A stretch of DNA of 36,187 bases from assembly GCA_034716875.1 (NCBI GenBank), contig JAYEKX010000097.1:1-36187 (forward strand), in the 5' to 3' direction. The first letter of the stretch is position 1, and every line of letters starts with the position of its first letter. The notes under the pieces were generated by a model, which saw only the letters and a list, made by a program, of their open reading frames with translations, was not told the DNA's origin and did no database searches. Below are positions 3,366 to 10,838 of the stretch, piece by piece. The stretch is from Candidatus Altiarchaeota archaeon. Lineage in GTDB: Archaea; Altiarchaeota; Altiarchaeia; IMC4; QMZM01. The translations under genes and the position numbers were made by a program.

Positions 3366-3596
3366 ATGATAATGGAGGTTGGCAGAGTCTGCAGGAAGGT
3401 TAAGGGTAAGGATGCTAGAAAGTACTGTGTAGTGGTGGAGAGAGATAAGAATTTGGTGTTGATAGATGGGAAGGGGATTAAAAGACGGAAGGTTAATGCC
3501 CTTAATCTGGAGCCATTACCTAAGGTTCTTAAGATCAAGAAGGGTGCGGCCACTAAAGATGTGATAAAGGAATTGGAGAAAGAGAAATTTATCTGA
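3366..3596 (+). CDS. rpl14e: 50S ribosomal protein L14e
   Basis: M(I)MEVGRVCRKVKGKDARKYCVVV...KRRKVNALNLEPL matches eL14. The start was moved from GTG 3354 (8 nt after the tRNA) to ATG 3366. Confidence 0.85.
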   Translation: MIMEVGRVCRKVKGKDARKYCVVVERDKNLVLIDGKGIKRRKVNALNLEPLPKVLKIKKGAATKDVIKELEKEKFI

Positions 3597-3603
3597 AATT
3601 ATT

Positions 3604-4593
3604 ATGGAATCCAAGATTCTCAGGGAAATCCTGGTGAAGTCCGAAGAAGAGACTGATCCAAGATATGGCTGCGACCCCAAGAGGAGAGGGATTAAAGAGT
3701 ATCTTGGATATGGGGTTGTGAATCTGGATAAACCCTCCGGACCCACTTCGCATCAAGTAAGCTCCTGGGTTAGTAAAATCCTGCATCTGAAGAGGGCAGG
3801 CCACTCCGGGACATTAGACCCTAGAGTAACCGGTGTTTTCCCTGTTACGCTTGAAAACGCAACCAAGATTGTTCAGGCATTATTACTCTCCACAAAAGGG
3901 TATGTATGCCTCATGTCCCTGCATGATGATGTTTCAGATGATAAACTGAACAAAATTGTTAGTTATTTTCAGGGCGAGATATTCCAGACCCCCCCTGTCA
4001 AGTCTTCAGTGAAAAGGGTGTTACGGAAGAGAAATATATATCAACTAGAGCTTCTGGAGAGAGAAAACAGGTGGGTGCTTTTTAATGTCAGGTGCGAGGC
4101 CGGGACATACATCAGGAAACTGTGTCACGACATGGGCCTCATCCTCGGCGTAGGAGCGCATATGCATGGGTTAAGGAGAACTAAGGCAGGGCCTTTTAAT
4201 GAAGACTTCCTTGTTACATTACATGACCTGAAGGATGCCTATGAGTTCTATATCGAGGATGATGACGAGAGTTACCTCAGAAGATGTGTGCAGCCTGTGG
4301 AGGAAGCAGTCCAGCATCTGAAGAAGATATGGGTAAAGGATTCAGCAGTATCTGCAGTCTGCCACGGCGCAAACCTCAACGCCCCCGGCGTAAGTAAACT
4401 GGAGGAGGGAATACAGGGTAATGAGTTAATCACCTTATTCACTCTAAAGAATGAATTAGTGGCTTTGGGAAGAAGCCTTAAAACTTCAGAGGAAATCCAT
4501 GAAATGAAACGTGGAGCGGTGTTTGACTTAAAACGGGTGATTATGAATCAGGATGTGTACCCTAAAAGATGGCGTAAATCAGAGGATATTTAA
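3604..4593 (+). CDS. cbf5: H/ACA RNP pseudouridine synthase Cbf5 (TruB family with PUA domain)
   Basis: 329 aa. Motifs VVNLDKPSGPTSHQV and GHSGTLDPRVTGV contain the catalytic Asp of the TruB family. C-terminal PUA-like region. Confidence 0.9.
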   Translation: MESKILREILVKSEEETDPRYGCDPKRRGIKEYLGYGVVNLDKPSGPTSHQVSSWVSKILHLKRAGHSGTLDPRVTGVFPVTLENATKIVQALLLSTKGYVCLMSLHDDVSDDKLNKIVSYFQGEIFQTPPVKSSVKRVLRKRNIYQLELLERENRWVLFNVRCEAGTYIRKLCHDMGLILGVGAHMHGLRRTKAGPFNEDFLVTLHDLKDAYEFYIEDDDESYLRRCVQPVEEAVQHLKKIWVKDSAVSAVCHGANLNAPGVSKLEEGIQGNELITLFTLKNELVALGRSLKTSEEIHEMKRGAVFDLKRVIMNQDVYPKRWRKSEDI

Positions 4594-4613: not shown

Positions 4614-4775
4614 ATGGATAAAAAATTATTGGAGATACTGGCATGCCCTAAATGTAAGGGTGATCTGGAATCAGGGGATAATTCCCTGATCTGCCGTAAA
4701 TGCAAACTCAGATACCGGATCGAGGATGACATCCCCATCATGCTGATTGATGAAGCAGAAAAAATCGAGGAGTGA
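4614..4775 (+). CDS. Trm112-family small zinc-binding protein
   Basis: 53-aa ORF, below the ORF-track cutoff, translated by hand: MDKKLLEILACPKCKGDLESGDNSLICRKCKLRYRIEDDIPIMLIDEAEKIEE. This is the classic Trm112/UPF0434 pattern (LACPxCKG...CxxCxxxYPIxDGIPxML). Confidence 0.8.
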   Translation: MDKKLLEILACPKCKGDLESGDNSLICRKCKLRYRIEDDIPIMLIDEAEKIEE

Positions 4776-4856
4776 ACTCCCTTAGACACATGCCGAGGAG
4801 GATGTGACTCACTTAGTTCGTCGCCCACCTCAACATTCTTCACATTCGTTCATCAT

Positions 4857-4943
4857 GCCGAGGTGGCGGAGTATGGCTAAACGCGCGGGCCTGCTAAGTC
4901 CGTTCCCCCTGAGGGAGCTTGGGTTCAAATCCCAACCTCGGCG
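4857..4943 (+). tRNA. tRNA-Ser (GCU)
   Basis: Acceptor GCCGAGG/CCTCGGC with discriminator G. Anticodon loop CTGCTAA. Long variable arm (TTCCCCCTGAGGGAGC). T-arm TGGGTTCAAATCCCA. Confidence 0.9.
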
Positions 4944-5162
4944 TAACCCCCCCTCCCATCTTTCCTAAAAAAATAAAGAGGATATGAAACAATAAAATGA
5001 CGGAGAAAAAATGGAAGCATCCCTTGGCTGAAAAAAATCCTGATGCGGTGGGAAGAAGACCGTCCTTTGCAGAAGGATACCATAGGACGGATGAGGAGAA
5101 GGAGCGTATGAGATTGATTCTTGAAACAGCACAGAAGGTATCCTTCCATAACACCAAGAAAA

Positions 5163-5259
5163 GGGCCCGTAGATCAGACTGGTAGATCGTCCGCTTGGCA
5201 AGAAAAAAGAAGGAGTTCCAAAATGCGGGAGGCCTCGGGTTCAAATCCCGACGGGTCCA
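5163..5259 (+). tRNA. tRNA-Ala (GGC) with a 23-nt intron at the canonical 37/38 position
   Basis: Acceptor GGGCCCG/CGGGTCC includes the G3:U70 Ala identity pair, with discriminator A. The anticodon stem TCCGC/GCGGG encloses 30 nt (TTGGCA + intron + T). The intron segment TTCCAA can pair with the anticodon region TTGG. The mature length would be 74 nt. Confidence 0.8.
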
Positions 5260-5260
5260 C

Positions 5261-5268
5261 TTTTTTTT
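5261..5268 (+). terminator. oligo-T tract (T8) directly after tRNA-Ala, archaeal-type terminator
   Basis: TTTTTTTT begins 2 nt after the discriminator base. Archaeal RNAP terminates at oligo-T runs. Confidence 0.5.
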
Positions 5269-5302
5269 ATAAACTATATTATTAATCCTAAAATTGTCTA
5301 AA

Positions 5303-6310
5303 ATGACTTTGTTACTGACGGAGGATGATATAAAATCTGTTCTGGATATGAGTAAAGTAGTTGAGGCGGTTGAGGAAGCCTTTAAGGCATATGGTGAGGG
5401 CAGAATTAACATGCCAGCTAAGACTTATCTATATCTGGAGGATGGCGACTTCAGAGCCATGTATGGTGTAATCAAGGGTATCCGCCAGGGAGTGGATATC
5501 TGCGGAATTAAATGGGTGAACGTGCACCCCGGAAATCCGAAGAAGGGTTTGCCCACGGTTATGGCTAAAATACTGTTAAATGATCCAGAAACTGCTTTGG
5601 AGCTGGCGGATATGGATGGAACCTACGTGACTGATTTGAGAACAGGGGCTGCTGGTGCAGTAGCGGCTAAATACCTCTCAAGAAAAGATTCCAGAGTAGC
5701 TGCTTTCATCGGAGCCGGATGCCAGTCAAAAACCCAGCTTTGGGGGTTATTGAATGTCCGAAAGTTGAGGGAAGCTAGGATTTATGATATAGACCAGAGT
5801 AAAGCAAAAAATTTTTCCGAGGAAATGACTAAGAAATTCAGTCTTGAGGTTTACTCCGTGGATAGTGTTAAGGAGGCGGTGGAGGATTGCGATATTCTGA
5901 CCACGGTAACGCCCTCCAGAAAACCGGTTGTTGACCTGCAGAGTATTACGGATGGAATGCACATCAATGCTATTGGAGCCGACGCTAAAGGTAAGGAGGA
6001 GCTTGACCCGAGGATATTGAAGAAATCCAGGATAGTTATTGATGATTGGAGTCAGGCCTCACACAGCGGGGAAATAAATGTCCCGCTGGAGAAAGGCATA
6101 ATATCCAGGAAAGACATCTACGGGAATCTGGGGGAGATTGTCACAGGAAAAAAAGAAGGCCGCGTATGCGATGAGGAGGTAACAATCTTTGATTCCACCG
6201 GATTAATTATTCAGGATCTCGCGGTGGGATACCTGGCCTATACGTTATGTAAGGAAAAAAAACTAGGCGAGGAAAAGTCATTCCTGAGTAGACTAAATTA
6301 TTTAGATTAA
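5303..6310 (+). CDS. ornithine cyclodeaminase / mu-crystallin family protein (archaeal alanine dehydrogenase-like)
   Basis: 335 aa from ATG 5303 (the track starts at TTG 5294). Family motifs GIKWVNVHPGNPKKGLPTV, DGTYVTDLRTGAAGAVAAKYL and the Rossmann IGAGCQSKTQL. Confidence 0.8.
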   Translation: MTLLLTEDDIKSVLDMSKVVEAVEEAFKAYGEGRINMPAKTYLYLEDGDFRAMYGVIKGIRQGVDICGIKWVNVHPGNPKKGLPTVMAKILLNDPETALELADMDGTYVTDLRTGAAGAVAAKYLSRKDSRVAAFIGAGCQSKTQLWGLLNVRKLREARIYDIDQSKAKNFSEEMTKKFSLEVYSVDSVKEAVEDCDILTTVTPSRKPVVDLQSITDGMHINAIGADAKGKEELDPRILKKSRIVIDDWSQASHSGEINVPLEKGIISRKDIYGNLGEIVTGKKEGRVCDEEVTIFDSTGLIIQDLAVGYLAYTLCKEKKLGEEKSFLSRLNYLD

Positions 6311-6675: not shown

Positions 6676-6749
6676 GCCTCCGTGGCTCAGCCTGGTAGAG
6701 CGGCAGACTTGTAATCTGCATGTCGAGGGTTCAAATCCCTTCGGGGGCT
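6676..6749 (+). tRNA. tRNA-Thr (UGU)
   Basis: Acceptor GCCTCCG/CGGGGGC with discriminator T. Anticodon arm GCAGA-CTTGTAA-TCTGC. T-arm GAGGGTTCAAATCCCTT. Confidence 0.9.
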
Positions 6750-6835
6750 ACTAAAAGGGTCAAATCCCTCTGGGTTTGACCACGTCTAATGCGGTTGTAT
6801 TTCTCTCTAGGAGAGAACGAGGTGAATTAGAAAAA

Positions 6836-7732
6836 ATGCACATCCCAAAAGCCCGTGAGTTGAATGTTTTCTTATCTGGCGTTTCACATGAATTTAAGGG
6901 TGAAAAGGAAAATTTAAAACACACATTAGATGAATATCTTGGGCTATCTGTATATTGTTCTGAGGCAGATAATGAGCCAGATTTTGCAGAAGCATGGCCT
7001 AAGCTTAAGAAGGAAATTGAATCTTCACATATATTTGCTTTGTTTATAGGCGTTGAATTTGGCAGTCCATCAGACAAAGAAGATATTTCAGTGACTCAAA
7101 AAGAGTATGAATTAGCAAGAGATTTAAAAAAGCCAATAATTGTTTTTACGACGGGAAATATATATAGACAAATTGAGGATGAACGTCAAAGAAGGTTTTG
7201 TAATCAGGTCACGAATTCCGATAAAGACGGTCTGTGGGTTCCATCACTTAAGGGGGGAGATATACAAGATGTGAAAAAATTATCGGAGTACATGATGGAA
7301 TACGTTTTTTTAACTGCAGCAGATGCACTTCCCGTTCTAAACAATGAAGATGAAGCTGGTAATTTTTATGTTAAAATTAGCATAATCAGTAGGAGTAGGG
7401 CATTGACACACGATCCAGATAATAATGAAGTTGATATTTTAATGACAATAATGATTCAGAATAGAGACAAATATGGACATTATGTCGATGCTATTTGGTT
7501 GGAGAAATTTGGGCGAAAACACAAATTAACCACATATGATACAAGCCATTATACTGGGGGCATGAATATTAATAATTCTCCAATTAAAATCGAGAAAATG
7601 GATAAAGTTATATACCGAACAACTATTAAGGTGCGCACTCCAAAAGATTTTGATATTGATGAATTCAGAGAAGAGCTTGAGAAGGATTTTAGAAGTTGCT
7701 TACCAATAAAATGTAGATGCTTGTCTGTATAA
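6836..7732 (+). CDS. DUF4062 / TIR-like (nucleoside 2-deoxyribosyltransferase-like) domain protein with an unknown beta-rich C-terminal domain
   Basis: The start was reset from TTG 6776 to ATG 6836, which follows GAGGTGA at 6819-6825. The N-terminus VFLSGVSHEFKGEKENL...SHIFALFIGVEFGS...ISVTQKEYELARDLKKPIIVF follows the DUF4062 pattern as I recall it. I recognise no motif in the C-terminal ~170 aa. Confidence 0.6.
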   Translation: MHIPKARELNVFLSGVSHEFKGEKENLKHTLDEYLGLSVYCSEADNEPDFAEAWPKLKKEIESSHIFALFIGVEFGSPSDKEDISVTQKEYELARDLKKPIIVFTTGNIYRQIEDERQRRFCNQVTNSDKDGLWVPSLKGGDIQDVKKLSEYMMEYVFLTAADALPVLNNEDEAGNFYVKISIISRSRALTHDPDNNEVDILMTIMIQNRDKYGHYVDAIWLEKFGRKHKLTTYDTSHYTGGMNINNSPIKIEKMDKVIYRTTIKVRTPKDFDIDEFREELEKDFRSCLPIKCRCLSV

Positions 7733-7913
7733 CCTGCAGCCTACACTAAGTATCTCTGGTTATCTGTTACTGCCCTGCATGTGGCAAGAAGGTTTTCATC
7801 AAGGAGGTACCTAATGGTGAATGCTCTATTAAGTTCATGCACTGCGGATACGAGATAGCGATAGATGAGCAATCAGGGGGGGGGGAAACTAAACCCACAA
7901 ACTCCAAAAGAAG

Positions 7914-8948
7914 ATGGTCAACGAAGAAAAACAAAAAAGAAAAAATAATGATGAGCTTGTGATTGATAATTTTCTTCATGCCAAAGTTAGTGTGCATACC
8001 CTTTCTGGAAGTTGGATGAAGAACTTTTTAGCCTTTTCAATCTTTTTTGTTATATTGTTTTATCTGGTAACTGAGGGTAAGCCGGTGGACATAAATGCGC
8101 TTTCTACGTTAAAGTCTGCAGCTTTAGGTTTGTTATCTGTCGCTTCTACAGTGCTCTTTCTTGCTTTTCTTTTTTGCGTTTATACAAAATATATCTTTTT
8201 GGGCCTTATTTTGCGATTAACTTCTCAAGATGTTGTTTCCACGCTTCTTATCGAACTCGTTGAAGAAAGATTAAGGTACAACTATCTGCGTGGTGTGCAA
8301 TACAAAAAAGTAAACAATTTATTGGATGACATACATTCTGAGTTAGAACGTATAACAAATAAACTGGATAGATATGATAAAAACTCAATAGATCAAATTA
8401 AGGAGGATATTTATGGCATCAAATGCCTTTTTTCTCGTGATGGAGCTATCTCAAATTTGATTTTTCTTTGCTCTATTGATAGTTTTCTTGAAATTAAAGA
8501 TGATTTGATTGACATATCCAAAAAAATTAAAAAAGAGGATTATGCTGCTCTTAGATTTACCCCAAAAAAGCTTAAAGAAAAAATAGATGACTTAGACGAA
8601 TATCGGAAAAAAGTTCCGCAAGAAACTAAAATACATCCAGTTAAACATTGGTTATCTACAATTTGGACCAAATTAGCCTTCTATTTAGGAGATAAAGAGC
8701 TGGTGATACGAATTGCAAGCCTAATAAAGGCTTATGAGCAACTTGCTTTAACGCTCATTTCATTGGTTTCACTTTTATTTCTTTCAGCATTAGTTCTCCT
8801 TGGTCATGGTGAGTGGGACACACTTGACTTTTGGATAGGATTCCTATATAAAGGACTCATACCCACAACTTTAGTAATTCTGACTTACAAAATATTTATG
8901 TTCATACTAACAAATCTTACGAGTTTTTCTGATGACTATGATTATTAG
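7914..8948 (+). CDS. multi-pass membrane protein with a central charged helical region (function unknown; candidate effector)
   Basis: 344 aa. Hydrophobic segments are FLAFSIFFVILFYLV, AALGLLSVASTVLFLAFLFCVYTKYIFLGLIL, LALTLISLVSLLFLSALVLLG and LIPTTLVILTYKIFMFILT. A ~170-aa K/E/D-rich helical stretch lies between them. The start is uncertain (ATG 7914 or the later ATG giving MKNFLAF). Confidence 0.55.
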   Translation: MVNEEKQKRKNNDELVIDNFLHAKVSVHTLSGSWMKNFLAFSIFFVILFYLVTEGKPVDINALSTLKSAALGLLSVASTVLFLAFLFCVYTKYIFLGLILRLTSQDVVSTLLIELVEERLRYNYLRGVQYKKVNNLLDDIHSELERITNKLDRYDKNSIDQIKEDIYGIKCLFSRDGAISNLIFLCSIDSFLEIKDDLIDISKKIKKEDYAALRFTPKKLKEKIDDLDEYRKKVPQETKIHPVKHWLSTIWTKLAFYLGDKELVIRIASLIKAYEQLALTLISLVSLLFLSALVLLGHGEWDTLDFWIGFLYKGLIPTTLVILTYKIFMFILTNLTSFSDDYDY

Positions 8949-8998
8949 AAAGGATTATTTATCTAACTATCTAATCCAAACCTTTTCTTCTGGTCCCG

Positions 8999-9061
8999 CC
9001 TTCAATTATTTATACGTATTTTAAGTATATATCGATTTCGTTTTATTTATCCTTCCCTTTC
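8999..9061. repeat. 63-bp direct repeat, copy 1
   Basis: CCTTCAATTATTTATACGTATTTTAAGTATATATCGATTTCGTTTTATTTATCCTTCCCTTTC. Identical to 10553-10615 except A9005 versus G10559. Confidence 0.95.
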
Positions 9062-9062
9062 G

Positions 9063-9158
9063 GAGGCGTTTGAGAAGTTAAAGGGCTTGAAAACAGAAGA
9101 CAAACACCTTCATAAATGGATCAACAAGGCTTTAGACGACCTGAGGAACGAAGATTGA
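9063..9158 (+). pseudogene. start-less gene fragment truncated at the repeat boundary
   Basis: The frame reads EAFEKLKGLKTEDKHLHKWINKALDDLRNED*. It continues upstream through the repeat with no ATG, GTG or TTG back to the stop at 8964-8966. This looks like a relic cut at the 9061/9062 junction. Confidence 0.3.
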
Positions 9159-9419
9159 ACAAATCGTTCCGAAGCGAAGCCTTCAAATCAGAATATAAGC
9201 TCATCTGTCCGTGAAGGTTACGAAAACAAGTGAGGAATGAACGCAGTTTGAGTAAGCTTGACGGATCTTCTTATACGCATTGATTATAGTTTCGTTGCAG
9301 ATCTACAGTCGATTTTAAGTGTTTTCTGCACAGCCGACTTCAATCCTTTGCCATAGTCTTTGTAATCCCATACCTTTTTGATACTAAATCAGAAACCTTA
9401 GCTGAAGCGCCAGAATAGG

Positions 9420-10049
9420 TCAAATCCTTGCAGAAGCATCTCCTTCAAAATCTAATGCACCGTCGTTTGCTACAATTGCCGATAAGGAAGGAGATGCTAA
9501 TGGTTCTTTTGAATAAATTAATTCCCTAATCGATCTTGCTGCATGTTCATGGGACTTTTTAACAGCCTCATCCACACTTTTACCTTTGAGTAGCTCTCTC
9601 ATTATCACATTTGAACCCTCAAGTATTGGTTTAGCGACTGGATCTAGCAGAGGATTGCACTCCCATTTATGCTGTCTTGCTATCCAAAATTTCTTTTTAT
9701 ATCCTATAAAACTACGACATCCCTTTTCTACTGCTTCCGGCCCCAACTCAACTAAGCATTCACAAGCTCTGGTATATGCAATTGTACCCTTGAAAACATC
9801 TGCAGAATCCAGATTAATGAATTCTTTTTTTTGATTGTTAATTAAACTGTTTTTACTGCCATGCCCATTAAAGAAAATTAAACTTGGTTGTCTCTTCTTT
9901 ACCCTCCCCCTAAGATTTCTCTCAGTTATATCGCCACCCTCAATTTTATTAACGATAAAATCTCTTACTTCTGCCTCCTCTATGATGGCATTAGACCACT
10001 TAAAAAGATAGCTTGTTTGGATATCGTGATTCGTTCTTATGATAATCAT
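9420..10049 (-). CDS. minimal caspase-like (clan CD-type His-Gly / Cys dyad) protein, putative cysteine peptidase
   Basis: 209 aa. Hydrophobic strand plus SLIFFNGHGS (H63) and TIAYTRACEC (C96), each following a beta-strand-like stretch. The N-terminal MIIIRTNHD strand plus helix layout resembles the caspase/gingipain/CHAT fold. This rests on pattern recognition only. Confidence 0.45.
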   Translation of the reverse strand: MIIIRTNHDIQTSYLFKWSNAIIEEAEVRDFIVNKIEGGDITERNLRGRVKKRQPSLIFFNGHGSKNSLINNQKKEFINLDSADVFKGTIAYTRACECLVELGPEAVEKGCRSFIGYKKKFWIARQHKWECNPLLDPVAKPILEGSNVIMRELLKGKSVDEAVKKSHEHAARSIRELIYSKEPLASPSLSAIVANDGALDFEGDASARI

Positions 10050-10058
10050 CGTAATAAC

Positions 10059-10337
10059 TCAGAAGTCAATGGATTCATCAAGTATCGTTGACATTTTTCT
10101 GATGAAGTTAATCTGCATATCTATTGTCTCTTTACCCACCTCTGATTCGTCTTCTACCTCCCGGATCAATTCATCCCTAGTGAAATCTCCAAAACTGCCA
10201 ATCGAAAAACTGACATCTGGAGGCATGGCATAGAGTCTCTCCTTCACCAGTTTTTTGAGATATTCAATATCAGCAAAAGGGGATTCACCCCTCTTGTCTG
10301 AGTGAAAAGATGAAATCTTTTTCTTGTCTTCAGTCAT
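10059..10337 (-). CDS. small acidic hypothetical protein (middle gene of the 3-gene cassette)
   Basis: 92 aa. Its ATG directly abuts the TAA of the upstream 66-aa ORF (TAAATG). A 9-nt gap separates it from the downstream caspase-like ORF. No motif recognised. Confidence 0.5.
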   Translation of the reverse strand: MTEDKKKISSFHSDKRGESPFADIEYLKKLVKERLYAMPPDVSFSIGSFGDFTRDELIREVEDESEVGKETIDMQINFIRKMSTILDESIDF

Positions 10338-10538
10338 TTATAACACCCCGATTTCTTTCAGACGCTCCAATAGTACAGCTGCTTTTTCAGTATTATGCAT
10401 AATTTCGGCTTTTGCAGTAGACCAATTAAACGTATCCTCACCTATGACGACAATTATCTCCTTTCTTAGGGGCTGTGGAACATTAGCAAATGTCCGTAAG
10501 AATTTTGCCTTTAACTCCTGATATTCATTATCATCCAT
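10338..10538 (-). CDS. small hypothetical protein (first gene of the 3-gene cassette)
   Basis: 66 aa. The ATG at 10538 lies 14 nt from repeat copy 2. On the minus strand, a TATAAATA element in that repeat sits about 27-30 nt upstream of the ATG, which suggests a leaderless or near-leaderless mRNA. Confidence 0.5.
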   Translation of the reverse strand: MDDNEYQELKAKFLRTFANVPQPLRKEIIVVIGEDTFNWSTAKAEIMHNTEKAAVLLERLKEIGVL

Positions 10539-10552
10539 CGTCTAAATCCCCC

Positions 10553-10615
10553 CCTTCAGTTATTTATACGTATTTTAAGTATATATCGATTTCGTTTTAT
10601 TTATCCTTCCCTTTC
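10553..10615. repeat. 63-bp direct repeat, copy 2 (probably carries the promoter of the minus-strand cassette)
   Basis: 62/63 identical to 8999-9061. A/T-rich with several TATA-like elements on both strands. Confidence 0.95.
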
Positions 10616-10838
10616 CTCCAGCAGATTGCATATTTCCTTAATTAATCAGAAAACAAAGCAGAAAAAGCCGGATCATACCAATTTAACGTGTTTAAACCCA
10701 AATTCTAATAATATAACACTGTTAGGGATTTAGACCTTTAGGCTTATCCCCCTCCGGGGGGCTTATGTATCTTTCTTTCCACATCCACCCTGTCTGATAA
10801 TGAGGGGATTATTTACATGTTAATACGAATATATCTAT

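Follow-up and report, generated by a model that had tools for sequence, protein, structure and literature searches.

We examined a 36,187-bp contig from a Candidatus Altiarchaeota metagenome-assembled genome (MAG), hereafter the window, which carries on its minus strand three adjacent genes named A3 (gene 1, 66 amino acids), A2 (gene 2, 92 amino acids) and A1 (gene 3, 209 amino acids). The A3-A2-A1 triad is an obligate, tightly packed three-gene unit. Its last gene is predicted to encode a minimal, single-chain, cytoplasmic cysteine protease that represents a separate clan CD family, nearest to C25 and CHAT. The unit appears to be restricted to DPANN archaea and to candidate phyla radiation (CPR) bacteria, with signs of exchange between the two domains of life. 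We tentatively propose, giving this somewhat less than an even chance, that the triad is a mobile three-component protease module resembling toxin-antitoxin (TA) or abortive-infection systems, with two inhibitory or substrate partners.

Conservation and distribution of the triad

With a combined length of about 1.1 kb, the three genes are labelled by NCBI as hypothetical proteins U9Q22_04665 (A3), _04660 (A2) and _04655 (A1). The initial annotation of the window, made from its letters alone, had called the three open reading frames (ORFs) at coordinates that proved exact (Table 1), and the junctions it described are present in the sequence: the ATG of A2 abuts the stop codon of A3, reading TAAATG, and a gap of 9 nt (gttattacg) separates A2 from A1. 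Shine-Dalgarno (SD)-like G-runs precede the starts of A3 and A2; the one belonging to A3, GAAGGGGGGG, lies within a copy of a direct repeat (copy 2 in Table 1) and ends 10 nt ahead of the ATG. None is obvious ahead of A1, which fits translational coupling. From the gene spacing we infer that the triad is translationally coupled, and the genes would also be co-transcribed.

Related loci were collected with a scan that combined a pattern with tblastn and covered the 185,579 GTDB species representatives, one genome each; it retrieved at least 47 triad loci, one per species, the pattern making this number a lower bound. Gene order was determined by running hidden Markov models (HMMs) of the three proteins against six-frame ORFs: A3, A2 and A1 followed one another on one strand in 45/45 loci whose upstream DNA was long enough, contig ends cutting off the remaining two. 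The three ORFs presented as a cassette by the initial annotation hence do recur together, and the two partners stand immediately upstream of the presumed effector, as in a TA module. Intergenic gaps range from -38 to +20 nt, mostly from -8 to +5 nt, and four more metagenomic loci (L001 and L051-L053) display the same layout.

The archaeal hosts belong to Woese-, Nano-, Iain-, Micr-, Aenigmat-, Mars- and Altiarchaeota, and the CPR hosts to Shapiro-, Levyi-, Woese-, Roizman- and Taylorbacteria, Saccharibacteria and unclassified Patescibacteria. Exceptions by label are four MAGs, namely two Methanosarcinales, one Chloroflexi and one Gammaproteobacteria (L009, L014, L020 and L045). Since their sequences nest inside DPANN or CPR clades, these labels probably reflect mis-binning, or co-binning of host and symbiont. 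In type, L020 hardly differs from an Iainarchaeum locus.

The pairwise distances of A1, A2 and A3 correlate with one another (r 0.59-0.80). The A1 tree comprises a DPANN clade, an Iain-/Micrarchaeota clade and a CPR clade in which several archaeal sequences are interleaved. Together, the correlated distances and the tree point to inheritance of the triad as a unit and to cross-domain transfer.

The predicted protease and its two small partners

The initial annotation had likened the 209-residue protein to caspases, gingipains and CHAT proteases of clan CD, and had placed a His-Gly pair and a Cys directly after hydrophobic strands. Both proposals are borne out by the AlphaFold2 (AF2) model, obtained with a 34-sequence alignment (predicted local distance difference test, pLDDT, 96.3; predicted template modelling score, pTM, 0.92). 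The model begins with β1 (residues 2-5), α1 (10-28), β2 (34-37), α2 (43-53) and β3 (57-61), continues with a small hairpin (68-70/76-79), α3 (80-86), β4 (90-94), α4 (102-108) and β5 (113-117), and ends with three helices followed by β6 (199-203). Clan CD is defined by a six-stranded sheet of order 2-1-3-4-5-6, with β6 antiparallel, and about five helices; its minimal core consists of β1-β4 and α1-α3, a small sheet separates β3 from α3, and the catalytic His, followed by Gly, and the catalytic Cys lie at the C-terminal tips of β3 and β4, respectively (PMC4357240). The order of elements in the A1 model, together with its structural neighbours, corresponds to this fold, and G62-H63-G64 and A95-C96 follow β3 and β4 as expected of the dyad. 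The codons of H63, in SLIFFNGHGS, and of C96, in TIAYTRACEC, are located at 9863-9861 and 9764-9762, as the initial annotation had it.

Foldseek searches of the PDB with the A1 model agreed with this assignment, all eight matches at E ≤ 1e-3 being SAVED-CHAT and gingipain R chains. The top match was the SAVED-CHAT protein 8tl0 (E 3e-7), and the best TM-score was that of gingipain R 1cvr (E 9e-6, TM 0.65, normalised to the query); the gingipain RgpB (4ief) was also found. Separase (9hma), the Craspase TPR-CHAT protein and a C11 protease came next, in ranks 9-12; the neighbours from the last two groups are 7y84 and 8d9h (Craspase TPR-CHAT) and 6mzo and 6nag (C11). Flavodoxin-like folds came much lower in the list than the clan CD matches. 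Among viral protein models, the matches included entries named 'caspase domain protein' and 'clostripain'. Sequence-profile searches of the PDB with A1 gave no clan CD chain.

Conservation is concentrated around the putative active site. H63, G64 and C96 are invariant both in the alignment of 34 relatives and in the 40 intact proteins from DPANN and CPR genome loci; F60, G62, G103, G116, Y117 and D136 are also invariant across DPANN and CPR relatives, as are P55 and F59 in the 40 genome-locus proteins. In a broader set of 148 diverse A1 representatives, C96 is the only fully invariant column, and H63 is kept in at least 90% of this set, which contains fragments. C111 is invariant in the DPANN set and not kept in CPR. 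On these grounds the His63-Gly64/Cys96 dyad appears catalytically complete. D9, at the end of β1, is Asp in 39/40 A1 sequences, and D136 lies in the loop after β5; both residues sit where Arg/Lys-specific clan CD enzymes carry S1 residues, suggesting cleavage after Arg or Lys.

The A1 family is large and uniform in size. At least 100 word-indexed relatives share 35-80% identity with A1, and nearly all are 205-217 residues long. An exhaustive profile search of 1.84 billion cluster representatives (50% identity level) returned 1933 clusters at E ≤ 1e-3, of which 815 remain at E ≤ 1e-10 and 226 at E ≤ 1e-30. Stand-alone proteins of about 205-221 residues, or fragments, make up the top 150, and none of these has extra domains. 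A1 itself runs from β1 to just past β6, and no signal peptide, prodomain, pro-region, linker, sensor or repeat domain was found in it. The very small, stand-alone format noted initially is shared by these relatives. A1 was not assigned to the existing Pfam families C25, CHAT, C14, C11 or C13, none of which matched it at E ≤ 1. At the same threshold, 13 of the 148 relatives weakly match Peptidase_C25 (best E 7e-7), four match YabG (U57) and three faintly match CHAT.

The two partners are acidic, as initially stated, by their computed isoelectric points (pI; Table 1), and are clearly conserved as coding sequences. A2 has at least 105 relatives, most of them of 70-80 residues; its conserved core covers residues ~23-85, the N-terminal ~22 residues being common to close relatives only. 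The core of the A2 model (pLDDT 85-97) consists of a helix (20-37), a β-hairpin (43-46/50-53) and two further helices (54-63 and 66-89), a helix-hairpin-helix-helix arrangement that would represent an unrecognised fold. Two glycines, G47 and G68, never vary; 42/47 sequences have Arg or Lys at position 54, and the C-terminal tails are the least conserved part. A3 has only eight word-indexed relatives, from which an HMM was built that finds a homologue at every related locus; F13, R25, W39 and E45 are invariant across the 47 species. The families as a whole are not basic either, with median pI values of 6.2 and 5.4, and DNA binding is therefore not suggested.

The initial annotation had recognised no motif in the small proteins, and no usable family match emerged from our searches either. 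The best Pfam-type values for the 92-residue protein (Trans_reg_C and ribosomal S18, E 0.1-0.14) are not usable, and only scattered chance matches came from a Pfam scan of 47 members per small family and from PDB profile searches. Farnesyl pyrophosphate synthase, aspartate aminotransferase, human immunodeficiency virus fusion-inhibitor peptides and S100A6, all retrieved by PDB profile searches with A1 and the small families, were dismissed as chance matches. Prefoldin β, the best Foldseek match of the A2 model, was not accepted as a homologue (E 0.15, TM 0.35).

A weak pattern shared by A2 and A3 had been noted initially as a possible trace of distant paralogy. With narrow alignments, hhalign gave the pair a probability of 0.2%; with 47-sequence alignments this rose to 37% (E 3.6e-4), the 51 colinear columns taking in almost all of either protein, and the register of the pattern, IG...F...E...(T/S)E.(A/G), was recovered. 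The shared pattern is weakly supported, and so is paralogy of A2 and A3.

Mobility, decay and possible functions

Several features suggest that the triad behaves as a cassette. In the window, a sharply bounded direct repeat of 67 nt (65/67 identical) brackets the triad together with 358 nt of non-coding DNA. One copy stops 10 nt ahead of the A3 ATG, where it doubles as the promoter-like and SD region; the other lies 358 nt downstream of the A1 stop and abuts the 3' end of a convergent gene of 344 codons, with no ORF after it. Nine other loci (L019, L022, L027, L029, L031, L034, L040, L046 and L053) also have the triad between direct repeats, of 34-177 nt and with sequences that differ from locus to locus. 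Under strict criteria, 5/37 triads are repeat-bracketed, against 0.7% of random intervals of equal length from the same loci (p 5e-6).

Integron attC sites were considered and rejected as an identity for these repeats. Folded as single-stranded DNA, the window repeat did no better than shuffled sequences (z +0.5 and -0.1), and the same was true of five of the six other locus repeats tried, the repeat of L045 being the exception (z -3.3); there is also no GTTRRRY core in the L031 repeat. Since the repeats vary by locus and mostly fold no better than shuffles, they are not attC sites. In L031, a promoter-like element of about 50 nt (TTGTCGTCGGAAATATATGTTTTTGTTACGAC...) occurs five times (1-50, 1213-1262, 2041-2085, 2911-2964 and 3685-3739) and separates small cassettes: the triad, a pair of 120 and 118 residues, a DUF2283-containing pair and small helix-turn-helix (HTH)-like genes. 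This array is integron-like in look, yet its element is devoid of attC features. In L053, the repeat flanking the triad (3574-3619 and 4892-4937) is a duplicated gene fragment, presumably of a degenerate MazG-like gene to judge from the motif RDWxxFHNPKDLTMS, and it looks as if the cassette had been inserted into this gene or had recombined through it. Repeat bracketing as a whole suggests an uncharacterised mechanism of cassette insertion or recombination in DPANN and CPR genomes. The triad shares with TA modules an accessory, patchy distribution, transfer between lineages and a variable context. No carrier was found among 50,697 records of phages and 72,556 of plasmids searched by tblastn with A1, nor were relatives of A1 found among IMG/VR viral contigs.

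The protease gene decays more often than its partners. A1 is disrupted in 8/47 species loci: single frameshifts at different positions affect six of them (L012, L025 and L047-L050), an in-frame deletion of residues 64-109 removes Cys96 in L019, and L016 carries a C-terminal truncation. A2 and A3 are intact at every locus where they are readable. In A1, lesions occur at a rate of about 1 per 5 kb. Their bias, with all six to eight lesions in a gene of 630 nt as against ~430 nt for A2 plus A3, has by our own calculation a p value of about 0.02-0.04. Both the rate and the bias would agree with an effector that does harm once unrestrained and is selected against. L001 holds, in addition, an orphan A2-like gene of 82 codons (4658-4906, minus strand; E 2.5e-13 to the A2 profile) just downstream of a triad of a different clade, the orphan resembling L032 and L044. 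It adjoins a YdjM-family gene and a gene for a β-propeller protein of 1437 residues.

We consider here how a protease toxin restrained by its two partners might work. Translational coupling would produce A2 and A3 in fixed proportion with A1, and the two acidic proteins would bind the basic A1 and keep it inactive. A2 and A3 could thus be trans-encoded stand-ins for the inhibitory pro-regions that other clan CD enzymes hold in cis; self-inhibition of clan CD enzymes by such regions has been summarised (PMC4357240). One or both partners would perhaps be cleaved by A1. Upon loss or displacement of the partners, through stress, infection or loss of the cassette, A1 would cut cellular targets and bring about cell arrest or death. 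The decay of A1 beside intact partners, the orphan A2 of L001 and the pairing of acidic partners with a basic protease are read here as signs of toxicity or of a complex. A more specific version strikes us as rather doubtful: a split zymogen made of a caspase-like executioner and two paralogous mini-proteins of novel fold acting in trans, carried by a repeat-bracketed cassette of ~1.2-1.5 kb and exchanged between CPR and DPANN episymbionts.

A number of observations weigh against the module we propose. Known defence families offer no match to A1, A2 or A3 in PADLOC 2.0 at E ≤ 1, and an immune role is conjectural. No family was matched by A1 in Pfam (E ≤ 1), NCBIfam, PADLOC or PHROGs, nor by A2 and A3 in Pfam, NCBIfam and PADLOC, and PHROGs gave nothing usable for the two; Foldseek found no significant structural neighbour of the A2 model, and no sensor, NTPase or DNA-binding domain was recognised in the three proteins. 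The small proteins are not basic, so that neither of them stands out as a classical DNA-binding antitoxin or as an autoregulator. Only one copy per genome was seen, and sequence identity across DPANN orders (50-80%) is unusually high for a conflict system. The A1 lesions may be partly MAG assembly errors, with modest statistics, and the equivalence of H63 and C96 to solved clan CD active sites is deduced from topology.

The same layout of a protease with two small co-encoded partners could also serve a regulatory switch, in which the small proteins would be regulators, or a regulator and its anti-regulator, cleaved upon a stress signal such as DNA damage, with a change of expression and not death as the outcome. 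ImmA/ImmR, IrrE/DdrO, CapP/CapH, CalpL-CalpT-CalpS and Craspase-Csx30 would be its analogues. Some CPR loci carry repair or SOS genes within two genes of the triad (uvrB/uvrA, HTH_3 with an AlkD-like gene, LexA), and YdjM is present in L001. Faint HTH-type Pfam matches appear in a few members of the small families (HTH_Cmi2_C in two, E 0.012; Trans_reg_C in two, E 0.1; HTH_5 in one), and the conserved basic residues R25 of A3 and position 54 of A2 fall in predicted loops. However, the small proteins are acidic and have no significant match to HTH, ribbon-helix-helix or winged-helix proteins by sequence or, for A2, by fold. As the repair neighbours come from pairs of related species, they represent only some three independent events, a number near what chance would give in small genomes, and no conserved target operon adjoins the triad. 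A module found in archaea and bacteria alike cannot, moreover, rely on sigma factors or on other domain-specific transcription machinery. We regard such a switch as unlikely.

Less likely still is a physiological system of maturation tied to episymbiosis, in which A1 would process A2 and A3, its sole substrates, into a heteromeric product, for instance a small structural or chaperone-like assembly of prefoldin-like helix-hairpin-helix units. It would account for strict co-inheritance in a fixed gene order, for strong purifying selection on all three proteins with the identity values given above, and for a range limited to two groups of ultra-small symbionts; prefoldin β subunits are the top fold matches of A2, though non-significant ones. 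Such a role is difficult to reconcile with a sporadic distribution (at least 47 of 185,579 species representatives), variable flanks and mobile-cassette features, and the repeated disruption of A1 beside intact small genes would leave unprocessed precursors. Nor do the small proteins show a conserved processing motif of the GG kind, the A2 tails being the least conserved part of that protein. Finally, A1 could have a caspase fold without catalysis and serve as a scaffold, or it could be an enzyme other than a peptidase that has the small proteins as its targets, since clan CD includes transamidases or ligases such as GPI8 and PorU. The invariance of the His, the following Gly and the Cys across two domains of life argues for catalysis, and secretion signals and C-terminal sorting motifs typical of transamidase substrates are lacking; we find this explanation very improbable.

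The proposed protease module can be compared with several known systems. A1 is closest to gingipain R and family C25 by the TM-score and the weak C25 matches of its relatives, and an Arg/Lys P1 specificity would agree with its conserved acidic residues. Its His and Cys are 33 residues apart, as in RgpB (His211/Cys244). Gingipain is a secreted protein of ~430 residues with a ten-stranded sheet, a prodomain, an immunoglobulin-like domain and a secretion signal, whereas A1 has ~209 residues, is predicted to be cytoplasmic, has two trans-encoded partners and matches no Pfam family. CHAT proteases, namely SAVED-CHAT of CBASS and type III CRISPR systems and TPR-CHAT of Craspase-Csx30, are caspase-like immune effectors that cleave co-encoded small proteins, and they supply the top Foldseek match (8tl0) as well as lower ones (7y84, 8d9h). 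The triad differs from them by the absence of SAVED, TPR or any other sensor or scaffold domain and of CRISPR or CBASS genes nearby.

The three-component TA systems omega-epsilon-zeta and paaR-paaA-parE resemble the triad in their succession of two small proteins and a larger effector with tight spacing, in their accessory mobile distribution, in neighbouring TA cassettes and in preferential decay of the effector. The effector of the triad is nevertheless a predicted clan CD protease, not a kinase or a gyrase poison, and there is no recognisable DNA-binding regulator. CalpL-CalpT-CalpS, made of a Lon-SAVED protease, an anti-sigma factor and a sigma factor, likewise joins a protease to two small partners, one of which is the substrate of CalpL; however, CalpL is of the Ser/Lys Lon class and requires sensing of cyclic tetra-adenylate (cA4), a sigma factor is not applicable in archaea, and A2 and A3 have no sequence or fold similarity to CalpT or CalpS. 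The C80 domain of MARTX and TcdA/B toxins is also a single-chain, minimal clan CD unit of ~200-210 residues, but one activated by inositol hexakisphosphate (InsP6) within giant toxins. Orthocaspases and metacaspases (C14B) share with A1 and C80 a single-chain form with no need for intersubunit cleavage, and differ from it by their p20/p10 regions and, often, extra domains. Acidic S1 residues confer basic P1 specificity on C14B enzymes (PMC4357240). Neither C80 nor C14B is among the significant Foldseek or Pfam matches of A1.

A full-text literature search found no description of the A1 family, of the partner proteins or of the triad. The arrangement, which the initial annotation believed to be undescribed, is so as far as these negative literature searches and those of family and defence databases reach. 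The protease fold was already known; what is new is the A1 family, its minimal stand-alone format, the two partners of unrecognised fold, the taxonomic restriction and the cassette behaviour. If the proposed module is real, no smaller stand-alone caspase-type protease system would be known; sensorless and regulated only by two partners of ~70 residues, it would illustrate how few parts suffice to control a caspase-like executioner. TA and abortive-infection biology would gain a protease class, and clan CD a new family of more than 800 clusters (50% identity level) at E ≤ 1e-10. Owing to its restriction to CPR and DPANN and its transfer between domains, the triad would be among the few compact, tractable gene sets tied to uncultivated ultra-small symbionts, and its repeat-bracketed architecture hints at uncharacterised cassette mobilisation in these genomes. 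The triad could also turn out to be simply one more TA-like module.

Surroundings of the triad

The coordinates of the triad and of the features that surround it in the window are listed in Table 1.

Table 1. Features of the A3-A2-A1 locus, in window coordinates (UTR, untranslated region)
Feature	Position	Strand	Basis or remark
A3, 66-aa acidic protein (pI 5.3)	10338..10538	-	ORF, HMM, conservation
A2, 92-aa acidic protein (pI 4.7)	10059..10337	-	ORF, AF2 model
A1, 209-aa basic protein (pI 8.8), predicted clan CD caspase/haemoglobinase fold	9420..10049	-	AF2, Foldseek
G62-H63-G64 codons, directly after β3 (residues 57-61)	9858..9866	-	Putative catalytic His and oxyanion-hole Gly, invariant
A95-C96 codons, directly after β4 (residues 90-94)	9762..9767	-	Putative catalytic Cys
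Direct-repeat copy 2, 67 nt, AT-rich promoter-like/5'UTR region of A3	10549..10615	-	
Direct-repeat copy 1, 65/67 identical to copy 2	8995..9061	-	
Non-coding stretch, 358 nt, within the repeat-bracketed unit	9062..9419	.	Rfam, tRNA and ORF scans
Low-GC block, probable horizontally acquired islet	6750..10800	.	GC content

Flanking genes at the other loci are highly variable. Clustering of 353 flanking ORFs revealed no fourth conserved gene, the largest family being present in three to four loci. Even the relatives that share 69-80% identity with the window protein have unrelated flanks, which encode ScpB and a β-propeller protein, an Rce1-like protein, or DUF2193 and an iron-containing alcohol dehydrogenase. 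Fic/DOC (four loci) and ResIII (three loci) lead the Pfam counts of nearest neighbours, and the pooled neighbours comprise only scattered TA, restriction-modification and repair genes. Repeat-bracketed cassettes beside triads contain AbiEi/AbiEii (L001), the DUF2283-containing pair (L031), DUF3368 (L017) and DUF3800 (L008); we take the DUF2283 pair and the DUF3368 protein to be of TA type.

Repair and SOS genes adjoin some triads. Two Woesebacteria loci (L035 and L047, assigned by ORF length) have the triad between uvrB and uvrA, and in two Saccharibacteria (L029 and L042) an HTH_3 gene and an AlkD-like alkylation repair gene lie directly upstream on the same strand. LexA neighbours the triad in two further loci, and YdjM adjoins that of L001. 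As a link to DNA damage, these neighbours are a weak hint.

In the window, the neighbours are housekeeping genes, encoding Cbf5, ornithine cyclodeaminase, a GlmU-like transferase, TiaS, NMD3 and adenylosuccinate lyase. The triad is part of a low-GC block of ~4 kb (31-39% GC, against 43-48% in the flanks). This block begins immediately beyond tRNA-Thr (6676-6749) and, besides the triad, encodes a DUF4062 protein and a membrane protein of 344 residues. Within the repeat-bracketed unit, the 358-nt tail has no ORF of at least 30 codons on the cassette strand, and neither Rfam nor ARAGORN found an RNA gene in the cassette or in this tail. A scan for sigma-70 promoters and terminators gave background levels, with models that are not applicable to an archaeon.

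The location of the low-GC block at tRNA-Thr probably marks an integration hotspot or its remnant. A degenerate copy of the tRNA 3' end (6757-6774, 15/18 identical) was seen 29 nt downstream of the tRNA's own. The DUF4062-domain protein (318 residues, 6776-7732) and the multi-pass membrane protein (344 residues, 7914-8948) may be a two-gene conflict system of their own; for the membrane protein, no more than a faint match to the PADLOC '2TM effector' (E 0.006) was obtained. Rfam further detects a fourth tRNA (52.5 bits), not called by ARAGORN, at 5163-5259 on the plus strand; this candidate is 97 nt long, may hold an intron, and overlaps the listed ORFs 4894-5412 (-) and 5294-6310 (+).

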